A DNA stretch of 16,424 nt from Candidatus Jordarchaeia archaeon (GCA_029856435.1 JAHQXB010000092.1:1-16424); one strand, 5' to 3'; positions 2,776 through 11,539 are shown, counted from the stretch's first letter. Translations and numbers: made by a program. The notes: generated by a model not told the origin, from the sequence alone.

Positions 2776-3195
2776 TTATTCGCCGATGATCTGAAGAATT
2801 ATATTCCTGTTTCTGGGCCTTACGTCTAATTCTATGAAAACAATTTGTTGCCAAGTTCCCAAAAGGAGTTTCTTTTGAGTGTAGGGAACAGTTAAACTGG
2901 GACCTAGAAGTGATGCCCTACAGTGACTGTGCCCATTTCCGTCATGCCACCTTAATTCATGCTCATAACCCATATTTTTGGGCGAGATTCTCTCCAAAAT
3001 TTTGGGAAAATCCTTCAGAAGACCTGGCTCATATTCAATGGTGGTAACGGCCCCTGTGGCACCGGGAACAAAAATTGTCACGATTCCACTTGTGGTTTGC
3101 GATTCGGAGACAGCCTTCTCTACCCTGTCCGTTATATCTATAATCTGAACCTCGCCCTGAGTTGAAAAACTAATTTTTTTAGTTTCCACAGTCAA
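2776..3195 (-). CDS. yjbQ: YjbQ/UPF0047 family protein (secondary thiamine-phosphate synthase-like)
   Basis: Motifs IIDITDRV, NGHSHCRASLLGPS and LLLGTWQQIVFIELD-x-RPR. Start moved from 3219 to TTG 3195, which follows a GAGGTG SD. Confidence 0.92.
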   Translation of the reverse strand: MTVETKKISFSTQGEVQIIDITDRVEKAVSESQTTSGIVTIFVPGATGAVTTIEYEPGLLKDFPKILERISPKNMGYEHELRWHDGNGHSHCRASLLGPSLTVPYTQKKLLLGTWQQIVFIELDVRPRNRNIILQIIGE

Positions 3196-3545
3196 CCAAA
3201 ACACCTCAACAAGCAACAAATATTATCTAAATATCTGAAAGCCCTTTAAAATATAAAGGATTTTACAAATCGATGCTAGACTTCCCGATGCGTTTTGTGT
3301 TGTTTAAGCTTGTAAATCTTTGGGGGAGGGTTTATTTGTGTGAAGTTTCCCACTTTTGGGAATTTAGTAAAAATTGGAAAAATATAACAGAAACATATTT
3401 AAATATGAATTAATCTATACTATATTAGTCGCAAAACTTTAAGCAAATATTGCGAATATCTCAAAAGATACAAGTGAGGAAAAACAAAACAAGCAATTTG
3501 ACCCAAAAGAAATAAAGGGATTATAAAAAAGGTTGGTGTTGTGCT

Positions 3546-7291: not shown

Positions 7292-8287
7292 CTATAAGGT
7301 ATTAATTTCGAAAAGCACCTTGTTGTCTTTGATGTGGGCGGTGACTTTTCCCTGTCTAATGAGTCTTTGCATGTAGCCGAGGGTGGCACCCTGAAGCATA
7401 TAGTTACTCTTGTCCACGTTATAGGATTCCGCAGTTAAATCTTCTAAGGTTACACACTTTCTTTTTTCCAAAATATCCAGGAAAATTTGTTCCCTTTTCA
7501 GCTTCCTTTCTATGTCTTCTTTTAGTTTCTTGTATGGCTCATTTATGAGGGGACCGTGGGCTGAAAGTATACATTTTAAATCTAATTTTTGTAATCTTTC
7601 CAGAGATTCAAGGTATATTGAAATGTTATCCGGTGTTTTGTTATCTGCACCTAGAATTTCGCCTATTTTTAGTGTACCCAATTCCCTCCAACCGTATCCT
7701 ACAAAGGTGGTTCCCGTTCCAATTACGTGGTCTCCTGAGAACAAAATTTTTTTATCCTCATCGTAGAGACAGATGTGTCCATTGGCGTGGCCCGGAGATT
7801 CAATTACCCTCAAATTAAATTTTTCCAAGCTTATTATTTCGTTTTCCTCAACCTTTCTTTCTACCTTTGACTCGTCGATCAACAGGTTGAAATCCATGTA
7901 CCTGTCTATCATTTCCCTTACTTTTGGCTCAAACTCTGAATAGCGCAGATTGTTTTTAATGCTTAAAATGTGCTGGTGATAGTTCTCAATTATTGCCGCA
8001 GCCTTATGTGAGGCGATAACAATGGCTTCAGATGCATTCTTTATTTTTTGGTTTCCCCCAAAGTGTTCAACGTGTTCATGAGTGTTTATTATTATTGAAA
8101 TGTCCTTCAAGCTTCTACCTATCTCCCCCAATTCTGAGGCAATCACATTCATCGACGAGGGGTCCCCCAGTCCTGTGTCAATTATTGCCGGCTCTTCGCC
8201 TTCCAAAAAATAAACGTTCAACTCAGGAGTGGCAGGGAAGGGAAGCTTCAGCGTAAACACATAAATATCTTTGAAGATCTCCTTCAT
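7292..8287 (-). CDS. MBL-fold metallo-hydrolase (glyoxalase II/LACTB2-like) with probable C-terminal winged-helix, paralogue A
   Basis: Motifs IDTG, THEHVEH, SPGHANGH, SGDH and AHG. C-terminal helix-helix-beta-hairpin pattern. GAGGTG SD upstream. Confidence 0.85.
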   Translation of the reverse strand: MKEIFKDIYVFTLKLPFPATPELNVYFLEGEEPAIIDTGLGDPSSMNVIASELGEIGRSLKDISIIINTHEHVEHFGGNQKIKNASEAIVIASHKAAAIIENYHQHILSIKNNLRYSEFEPKVREMIDRYMDFNLLIDESKVERKVEENEIISLEKFNLRVIESPGHANGHICLYDEDKKILFSGDHVIGTGTTFVGYGWRELGTLKIGEILGADNKTPDNISIYLESLERLQKLDLKCILSAHGPLINEPYKKLKEDIERKLKREQIFLDILEKRKCVTLEDLTAESYNVDKSNYMLQGATLGYMQRLIRQGKVTAHIKDNKVLFEINTL

Positions 8288-9641: not shown

Positions 9642-9703
9642 TCTACTTAAAAAACCCAAAAATTCACCGAAGAATTCCCAAAGCGTTATTTAAAATGTGG
9701 CGG

Positions 9704-11224
9704 TTATGTTTCCGGGTGCAATTTAAAAGTGACAAGCAGATGCACTGATCTAGGTCCGAAGGTTGTAAGTAGATAAATGTTTTCCCTGCTGCCCAGCATC
9801 AGTTCTCCATTGCGATAGGGAACAATAATGTCTTTTTGTCCATAGGTGGTTGCCACGATGTGGTCTGGGAAATTGAAATCTGGCCTGTTTTCGGCCGCCA
9901 TGACGGTGTGGAGTTTCATATCTGGTGACTCTCTGGTCTTTTCCACAAATTCGTAGTGGAGTTGTAGGAAGTTCCCAGCCTCATTTTCATTGATAATTAG
10001 TGCGGTTGTGGTGTGTTTGGTTCTAATCTGAACCTCACCATTGCAAAATCTGGGAAAATTTCTCCTCACATTGGAAACTATCTCTTCTAAAGCCGGCTGA
10101 ATCCACAACAGTTGAGTTATGGAAAATGATTCTAATAGTAAGTCAAAGTGAAGTTCTATAGTGCTCACACCACTACCCTTCACATCAATCTCGCTAGCGG
10201 GACCAAATATTTGGGTTATGCGGTGTGGTTTGGGCACTTGCAAATTTTTCCCAAAAATTTCAGACTTTAGGGGAACATTTTTTAATTCGTACCAGCGATG
10301 AGCGTTGCGAAAACCAAGTATGCGTAGTAGGTCCCTCCAAGCTAGCGTCAGTTCCTCCGTGGCTTCCCAAAATCCTTTCACCACTTGTGAAATTTCTAGT
10401 GTGGGTGTTGCGCTCCCTATAAGAATTCGGCTGAACGAGTTTTGCACCAGCCCCGGTTGAGAAAATAATATTGAAAAAAACCTTCTGGGTGAAATACCCC
10501 CAATCGATCTTGGGTCAACCTCCACCGCGAGGTTGGGATGATATTTTAAAAGATTAAAGTATTGTAAAAGATCTGAACCTATGTCTCCGTTACTGATGAT
10601 GACCTTAAGTTTTGGGTAAGAGTAGAGGAAACGGTCTATTATTCGGGGGTCAGTTAGTCTCCTATCATTATCGGGAAGATGCATGTTTCCCGCATCAATC
10701 TTTAGTGGAAGATTGTGTGAAACGCAAATATTAACTAGCTGCTCAATTTTGGGTGTGTCCTCCGCCAAATTTAACCCAAGGTAGCTTGGGTAGACTGCTA
10801 TTCCTGCAACGGAATCATGATTAGATTCAACCTGTGAATTCAGTTCTTTAACGGAATTATTGTTAAGGGGGTTAACAGAAAGTATAGCTCTAAAAATTTG
10901 TTTATTCAATCTTGCCACTTTAAGAACCCACTCATTGGGAATTCCATAAGCCCTGTTGAGTTCCATTCCTTGGAGGAGAACGACCTCAATTCCGCTGCAC
11001 TGTAATTCCAAGGCAAATTCTCCAAGGCTAATCTTCCTATTGTAGAAGAGAGGATTTCCATCCCGGATCACATTAAAAAGGTTGCGAACAGATGGGGGTA
11101 AGGTTAAGTCTTCAAAAATGGGCCAGACAAGGCAGTCCACCATCGGAAAGTCAAAAGGATTCCTAAACTTGTCCCCAAATACTGGGCTGAAATCTGGACA
11201 GTACAATCTCTCCAACATTTTCAC
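9704..11224 (-). CDS. Fusion protein: N-terminal amidohydrolase-2-like TIM barrel lacking canonical metal ligands plus C-terminal YjbQ/UPF0047-like domain
   Basis: Residues about 26-315 follow the Amidohydro_2 layout (IPNEWV, LSVNP, GIAVYP, NLPLKIDAG, YPKLKVII, RILIGS-x-x-P, ILG-x-NA-x-R-x-Y). Residues about 355-501 have YjbQ motifs (KHTTTALIINENE-x-G, PDH, GELMLG, IY..GPR). GTG 11224 follows a GAGGA SD; ATG 11218 is an alternative start. Confidence 0.75.
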   Translation of the reverse strand: MKMLERLYCPDFSPVFGDKFRNPFDFPMVDCLVWPIFEDLTLPPSVRNLFNVIRDGNPLFYNRKISLGEFALELQCSGIEVVLLQGMELNRAYGIPNEWVLKVARLNKQIFRAILSVNPLNNNSVKELNSQVESNHDSVAGIAVYPSYLGLNLAEDTPKIEQLVNICVSHNLPLKIDAGNMHLPDNDRRLTDPRIIDRFLYSYPKLKVIISNGDIGSDLLQYFNLLKYHPNLAVEVDPRSIGGISPRRFFSILFSQPGLVQNSFSRILIGSATPTLEISQVVKGFWEATEELTLAWRDLLRILGFRNAHRWYELKNVPLKSEIFGKNLQVPKPHRITQIFGPASEIDVKGSGVSTIELHFDLLLESFSITQLLWIQPALEEIVSNVRRNFPRFCNGEVQIRTKHTTTALIINENEAGNFLQLHYEFVEKTRESPDMKLHTVMAAENRPDFNFPDHIVATTYGQKDIIVPYRNGELMLGSRENIYLLTTFGPRSVHLLVTFKLHPET

Positions 11225-11539
11225 AGCGTCCTCTTATTTTTAATTATTGAATAGTGACTTATATAACTCCACTTGATACAGGTTAATGTGCAAACCCACC
11301 TAAAAAGTTAAATATATTAAAATAGCCCATCCTTCAGACTTTTCGCATTTGGAAAGTGTGAGTTGGGCCGTTTTTCACGTGATTTTAATTAATAAAGGTA
11401 AATTATTTCTTGTTTATGTATATTTTAATAATAATATTTTTTATATTAAAAACACGGTTTTCCCATTTCGAAAGAGATATAAGCCCCCAAATTCAATTAT
11501 TTAGCATAGCAACACAATTTAGGGGATGCGGTGAGCATT

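Follow-up and report, generated by a model that had tools for sequence, protein, structure and literature searches.

A 16,424-nucleotide contig from a Candidatus Jordarchaeia archaeon (GCA_029856435.1, JAHQXB010000092.1:1–16424; the whole stretch is hereafter called the window) encodes on its minus strand a protein that joins an Amidohydro_2-type barrel, in which every metal ligand has been replaced, to a YjbQ/UPF0047 domain that retains all the core residues of its family. In the reading that we favor, with a probability of roughly 55%, this protein is a fused two-part enzyme: a trimer of the YjbQ half would be catalytic, and the metal-free barrel would act as its binding partner, probably for a phosphorylated sugar or amino sugar. 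The YjbQ/UPF0047 family spans the three domains of life, and structures of its members have been solved for about twenty years. According to a 2026 preprint, YjbQ is still of no clear function. The architecture is new, both component families being already known. The initial annotation of the window knew of no described family built in this way, and a full-text literature search on YjbQ/UPF0047, also in combination with archaea, likewise found no paper on an Amidohydro_2–YjbQ architecture.

The open reading frame (9704–11224, minus strand) encodes 506 residues if read from the GTG at 11224, as the initial annotation had it; the frame and its two halves stand, and the strand is an added detail. 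The likely start is the ATG at 11218, giving a coding sequence of 504 residues (9704–11218, including the stop codon at 9704–9706), and the same start is used in the database copy (MLERLY) and in the consensus MxERLY of 49 orthologues. Residue numbers in this text count from the GTG, two codons before the ATG. An AlphaFold2 model built on a 49-sequence alignment is confident throughout (predicted local distance difference test score, pLDDT, 92; predicted template modelling score, pTM, 0.90) and shows eight beta-alpha units followed by a linker and an alpha+beta domain. These correspond to a (beta/alpha)8 barrel at residues 28–312 (10289–11143), an inter-domain linker of variable sequence at residues 313–333 (10226–10288), where model confidence is about 74–89, and a YjbQ/UPF0047 domain at residues 334–506 (9707–10225). 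Preceding the barrel is a family-specific, 27-residue N-terminal extension (residues 3–27 when translation begins at the ATG; 11144–11218), which bears conserved E5, L7, Y8, P10, D11, F12, F16 and F24 and is absent from free-standing Amidohydro_2 relatives in the alignments.

That the N-terminal part is a TIM barrel, as had been proposed, is borne out by the eight modelled units and by Foldseek, which returned BB4693 (3irs; expectation value, E, 7.7e-12; template modelling score, TM, 0.71 by target), ACMSD, LigI (4i6k) and uronate isomerase, the first three with probability 1.00. An Amidohydro_2 cluster of the ESM Atlas matches the barrel with a TM of 0.88. At the level of profiles the relationship is at the edge of detection: Pfam Amidohydro_2 (PF04909) aligns with residues 89–211 at 26.2 bits, just below its cut-off of 26.4, and the precomputed PF04909 match is missing from most orthologues. 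The C-terminal part scores above the cut-off for Pfam UPF0047 (PF01894; residues 387–497, 38.2 bits against 27), and Foldseek matched it to every solved YjbQ protein, among them 1vph, 1ve0, 1vmj and 2p6h (probability 1.00, TM 0.78–0.81 by target), in keeping with its initial identification as YjbQ-like. Both domain assignments were also recovered by a profile search against PDB sequences, which pairs the YjbQ half with 1ve0 and 1vph.

The most striking property of the barrel is the wholesale loss of its metal site. Ligand positions were mapped on an alignment that includes Amidohydro_2 proteins with intact ligands, among them one encoded in the same genome. The strand-1 HxH motif aligns with L32 (codon 11129–11131) and W34 (11123–11125), the strand-5 His with D177 (10694–10696), the strand-6 His with N212 (10589–10591), the strand-8 Asp with A272 (10409–10411) and the strand-4 Lys with A143, all on the minus strand. 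The motifs from which the initial annotation had deduced this loss, D30-C-L-V-W34, K175-I-D177-A-G, I-S-N212-G, G-S-A272 and G141-I-A-V-Y-P, lie at the residues it gave, and its suggestion that the loss be followed across orthologues leads to the same picture, with conservation in 45 to 49 of 49 sequences per position: L32 in 45, W34 in all 49, D177 in 47 and A272 in 46. Position 212 is Gly in 46 of the 49 orthologues and Asn in the window protein. Because the substitutions are family-wide, the loss of the metal ligands is, judged from this alignment, old and fixed, and metal-dependent hydrolysis or decarboxylation by the barrel would be impossible in the usual way.

Loss of the ligands did not go together with relaxation elsewhere. 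Near-invariant or invariant polar residues line the C-terminal strand ends and the loops that follow (Y61, R63, Q85, K175, D177, E235, D237, R239, N262, E277, Q280, R306 and R310), and by its conservation pattern the barrel does not appear to be decaying. Measured against an 86%-identical orthologue from a sister genome (L001), the ratio of nonsynonymous to synonymous substitution rates (dN/dS) is 0.15 overall, 0.14 in the barrel and 0.19 in the YjbQ half; the fusion is under purifying selection. The L011 and L012 comparisons, being out of register, do not enter these values. Compared with ordinary Amidohydro_2 proteins such as BB4693 (3irs), ACMSD (2hbv) and LigI (4i6k), the fused barrel shares the (beta/alpha)8 fold, the strand order and D30, N97, P146 and P274, four residues that are probably structural. 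It differs in lacking the HxH, the two further His and the Asp, in placing an invariant Trp at the second His position, and in carrying the N-terminal extension.

The YjbQ half presents the opposite situation. Whether fused or free, the aligned YjbQ proteins all have G396, T406, E413, D449, N451, H455 and G478, and nearly all have H404, E415 and H439. The motifs K-H404-T-T-T-A-L, N412-E-N-E and D454-H455, reported earlier as retained, are all in place (minus-strand codons 10013–10015 for H404 and 9860–9862 for H455), and the remaining family-wide core residues are kept as well. With ordinary YjbQ/UPF0047 proteins (PF01894, TIGR00149; 1vph, 1ve0, 1vmj, 1xbf, 2p6c), the domain has in common the fold of its C-terminal 170 residues (TM about 0.8 by target) and residues H404, T406, E413, H439, D449, N451, H455 and G478, and it may form the same trimer. 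Unlike these proteins, which are free and about 140 residues long, it is fused, it has an insert of 6 residues in which E445 and R447 are invariant, and it reads G-S-R-E where they read G-T-W-Q. It scores 33.1 bits with TIGR00149, the NCBIfam equivalog of ordinary YjbQ, far under the cut-off of 67.75. Further residues invariant in the fused family are N418, H423, E445, R447, D454, R480 and E481 (codons 9782–9787, minus strand), T488 and F489.

Modelled in three copies, residues 330–506 are predicted to form the usual YjbQ trimer with its sites between the chains. The score of 0.83 stands against 0.00 for the best of three controls, although solved YjbQ trimers exist and the score may reflect nothing more than likeness to them; of proteins solved as one-chain pairs, 20 of 30 attained the mark applied, and of those solved as single chains, 1 of 23. 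Across runs, no less than 58% of contacts agreed, and partner pLDDT was 67 or higher. In the modelled interface, H404-T405 of one chain packs against G478, R480, E481 and N482 of the next; the contacts of the stretch up to T406 also take in N412-E413 of the neighbouring chain.

The main clue to function is an adjacent gene pair, found in organisms in which the two halves are encoded separately. Its members were chosen by sequence similarity alone, and their adjacency was found only afterwards. A profile of the barrel half matched only the fusion family itself and no close free-standing relative; among 1.84 billion representatives, only three free barrels were matched by the N-terminal half. 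One of them, P0128, is a 285-residue Amidohydro_2 protein whose gene is directly followed by a 143-residue YjbQ gene. On longer contigs the pair is embedded in the order DeoR, SIS, PfkB, Amidohydro_2, YjbQ and two EamA genes, and one member of the cluster is named Terriglobia. Across 80 related metagenome loci, YjbQ lies directly downstream in 64 of the 67 with enough flank, PfkB upstream in 54 of 72 and SIS upstream in 53 of 58. From the other side, the free YjbQ protein P0122, matched by the C-terminal half, is followed after 3 bp by an Amidohydro_2 gene, in reverse order. The pair also occurs within the Asgard archaea: three genomes of a family that lacks the fusion encode a barrel 46–52% identical to P0128 and then a YjbQ gene, with a gap of 8 bp in the genome examined in detail (G002). 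Orthologues of this Asgard free barrel were found in no other sampled Asgard family.

Pair and fusion are connected by more than order. In both the linked YjbQ proteins and the fused domain, the extra Arg (R447) is present and G-S-R-E/Q stands where ordinary YjbQ has G-T-W-Q, and the linked and fused barrels share the signatures LKY-PN, SP..F and GS..P..E. The uncharacterised pair, in Terriglobia-type bacteria, the one Asgard family and a further locus (L076), is therefore like the fusion in YjbQ subclass, barrel signatures and, save for the P0122 locus, gene order; it differs in consisting of two genes with about 26% identity to the fused halves, and in a free barrel that retains the strand-1 HxH along with the two His that follow. 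In the linked barrels, Asn takes the place of the strand-8 Asp. This free barrel may represent an intermediate stage on the way to complete loss of the metal site.

The strand-8 sequence GSNYP is identical in the Terriglobia-type bacteria and the Asgard family at an overall identity of about 50% (L077 7604–8461; L110 8951–9808). This suggests gene transfer between the domains of life, and also a non-hydrolytic chemistry older than the fusion, since the free partner barrels already have the Asn. In the Asgard locus L110, two V4R-domain genes (195 and 169 residues; 9898–10997, minus strand) lie directly upstream of the split pair on the same strand. As small-molecule binding is the presumed role of V4R domains, these genes may form one unit with the pair.

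The fusion itself has a comparable setting in the closest relatives of the window. Three sister genomes (L001, L002 and L011) carry SIS, PfkB and the fusion in the same order as the bacterial operon, at identities of 21–29%. The SIS proteins are of the GlmS-C, GlmD or AgaS-like kind; the kinases fall among the generic sugar kinases of the PfkB type. A fourth locus, L012, retains a 139-residue SIS remnant only. In the window, the region upstream of the fusion aligns by blastn with L001 4962–5734 and then jumps to 7961–8068. The intergenic stretch 11219–11530, examined by blastn and tblastn, accordingly corresponds to L001 5735–7960 without the 2.2-kb SIS and PfkB cassette, a clean presence/absence difference that could be a loss or a gain. 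No SIS or PfkB orthologue was found elsewhere in the genome, the best match being 27% identical.

Taken together with the conservation of both halves, these arrangements lead to the following proposal. The fusion would have been made by joining the two genes of a conserved Amidohydro_2-then-YjbQ pair. Because its site is intact and that of the barrel has been emptied, the YjbQ half, with all family residues and the two Arg of the amidohydrolase-linked class, is the likelier catalyst and the barrel its partner. The barrel, whose arginine-rich C-terminal face is kept, would most likely bind or present the substrate or hold the trimer together, and would perform no metal-dependent hydrolysis. As substrate, a derivative of a phosphorylated sugar or amino sugar is most likely, because DeoR, a GlmS/AgaS-like SIS protein and PfkB precede the split form and the sister genomes have the order SIS, PfkB, fusion. 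From the observed architecture, ligand loss, conservation, gene-pair link and purifying selection we infer as most likely the assignment of catalysis to one half, the substrate class and the assembly of the trimer in vivo. A precedent in principle is known: in Pseudomonas, the inactive dihydroorotase-like PyrC' supports the trimers of aspartate transcarbamoylase. As in the present proposal, an amidohydrolase-superfamily barrel without a metal site is the partner of a trimeric catalytic protein. The analogy is one of principle only, as PyrC' is an Amidohydro_1-type barrel, serves another partner and is not fused.

Several observations weigh against this proposal. The catalytic face of the barrel, including the invariant W34, is conserved as strongly as the YjbQ site, which would suit an active barrel equally well. 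To our knowledge, YjbQ proteins have no activity beyond a weak side activity, so that it is by its conservation that the YjbQ half is called catalytic. As for the sugar link, the bacterial loci are close relatives of 73–95% identity, and therefore amount to few independent observations. The SIS–PfkB cassette is absent from the window, where tblastn finds no remnant of it. The PfkB of Lokiarchaeia-type loci is from another subfamily, with a divergent gene between it and the fusion, and the diverse loci L005, L007, L013, L015, L057 and L060 show no common neighbour and no link to a sugar operon.

The Lokiarchaeia-type neighbourhood deserves separate mention. Of 59 such loci, 44 have PfkB at position –2, 39 an oppositely oriented 664-residue Metallophos protein at –1, 36 a 486-residue coiled-coil protein at +1, 31 an amino-acid permease at +2 and 29 a PHP protein at +3. 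We take this as lineage synteny by shared ancestry and not as independent evidence. Single linkage had joined the Loki PfkB and the Jord/Frey PfkB into one conserved partner; this grouping was rejected, because NCBIfam places the two in different subfamilies. Two loci that otherwise differ (L003 9473–9736; L007 9949–10236) share a small UPF0147 gene immediately downstream of the fusion and convergent with it.

The strong conservation of the barrel face raises the alternative of a bifunctional enzyme, in which the barrel would be catalytic as well, either without a metal or at a new carboxylate/lysine site made of D30, K175, D177, E235 and D237, and the two halves would perform successive steps of a pathway. 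Invariant polar residues do stand at the ends of strands 1, 5, 7 and 8, and the free partner barrels, with GSNYP, also have Asn for the strand-8 Asp. LigI, an Amidohydro_2 enzyme among the Foldseek matches, works without a metal. LigI nonetheless keeps its His residues, whereas here all are gone and the centre of the pocket is filled by the invariant Trp and by Leu. Moreover, D30 and one of E235/D237 are conserved, as non-ligands, in ordinary Amidohydro_2 proteins too, so that few of the acidic residues are truly new. On balance we regard a second active site in the barrel as possible but less likely, and the barrel may be the pseudoenzyme that the initial annotation saw in it.

It is also conceivable that neither half is an enzyme and that both only bind a small molecule, as would a metabolite sensor, a chaperone or a storage protein. 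A barrel without a catalytic metal site, a family for which no physiological reaction is known and a gene that persists in the window without pathway neighbours would all fit such a role. Hard to square with it are the invariant His/Glu/Asp constellation of the YjbQ half, typical of a metal or acid-base site, and the position of the split pair inside catabolic-type operons, between kinase and transporter; Pfam, in addition, shows neither a DNA-binding nor a signalling domain in the fusion. Purely non-enzymatic binding consequently appears quite unlikely.

The fused domain has to be seen beside the other YjbQ genes of the same genome. A stand-alone gene within the window (2776–3219, minus strand) encodes a 147-residue protein that scores 121 bits with PF01894 and 103.5 bits with TIGR00149. 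In this protein, G-A-T replaces the H-T-T of the family, so that the first, otherwise near-invariant His is missing. A second ordinary YjbQ, with H-T-T, is encoded on another contig (L009 1486–1926), which brings the YjbQ-type genes of the genome to three. Since two of them are ordinary, the fused domain is a specialised YjbQ paralogue. These genes bear on the idea that the fusion substitutes for thiamine-phosphate synthase. Databases name the fusion protein either "YjbQ family protein" or "thiamine phosphate synthase YjbQ", overproduced YjbQ proteins reportedly replace ThiE weakly, and no ThiE-type gene was found in the genome. Such a role is nevertheless rejected as very improbable, because the genome has two ThiN-type thiamine-phosphate synthase genes besides its two ordinary stand-alone YjbQ genes, and the fusion reaches a mere 33 bits with TIGR00149 against a cut-off of 68; no thiamine gene lies beside the fusion in any locus examined, and half of the window's genus does without it. 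The broader suggestion of the initial annotation, possibly base or cofactor salvage, is not supported either: the ThiN and ordinary YjbQ genes speak against it, and the partners of the split form, DeoR, a GlmS/AgaS-like SIS protein and PfkB, point to sugar or amino-sugar phosphate metabolism instead.

As to its distribution, the fusion is a family of the Asgard archaea. A word-indexed search returned 88 full-length clusters of about 490 residues each, all named Asgard archaea, with E down to 1e-298. An exhaustive HMMER pass over the 1.84 billion representatives gave only 47 matches: members of the family, fragments of them and a few single-domain proteins of distant similarity. Searching longer proteins with the YjbQ half retrieved this family only, and no other kind of YjbQ fusion. 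The gene occurs in 62 of 400 Asgard genomes from five families, always as a single copy and in one uninterrupted frame. Within the window's genus it is found in 3 of 6 species, and it is missing from one complete, one-contig genome. Given this patchy presence, the fusion is an accessory gene. That assembly or gene calling joined two neighbouring genes by mistake, as the separate 330- and 151-residue calls for the halves on metagenome contig L070 might hint, is a practically negligible explanation and is rejected: the recurrence on which the initial annotation had hung its claim is found in 62 genomes from many studies with a single stop-free frame, the L070 split is a frame shift within an A-rich run, and the linker is modelled as part of a protein with a whole-chain pTM of 0.90.

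What lies behind the frame shift itself (L070 4001–5471) may be an error of sequencing, the decay of this copy or a genuine split. An Asgard-type fusion gene also sits on contigs labelled as a Nanopelagicaceae bacterium (L036) and as Bathyarchaeota (L062), which are probably errors in the binning of metagenome-assembled genomes; L036 additionally carries the Loki-type 664-residue Metallophos neighbour. Twelve separate stretches of a 1,124-residue protein, P0108, match the linker region of the query (residues 315–352), and this may be a repeat protein or a low-complexity similarity.

In the window, the fusion gene is probably transcribed on its own, to judge from putative signals read directly from the DNA. 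On the minus strand, a TATA-box-like TTATATAA (11259–11266) lies about 44 nt 5′ of the ATG at 11218, a GAGG that may serve as ribosome-binding site precedes the same ATG (11230–11233), and two oligo-T runs resembling archaeal terminators (9649–9662) follow 42–57 nt past the stop.

The fusion, the gene pair and the operon together give YjbQ a concrete partner, a pathway class and a short list of residues, by which the question of its function becomes testable. They also offer a clean natural case of strong selection that persists on an amidohydrolase barrel after the loss of its entire metal site. More tentatively, it is possible that the Arg-bearing YjbQ subclass is the catalytic subunit of an unrecognised two-component enzyme, whose second subunit would be an amidohydrolase-derived barrel with its metal unneeded or lost, and which would act at a step in the breakdown of phosphorylated sugars or amino sugars beside PfkB and an AgaS/GlmS-like isomerase-deaminase. 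If this is true, the Asgard fusion would be the Rosetta stone through which the universal YjbQ family receives its first physiological role.

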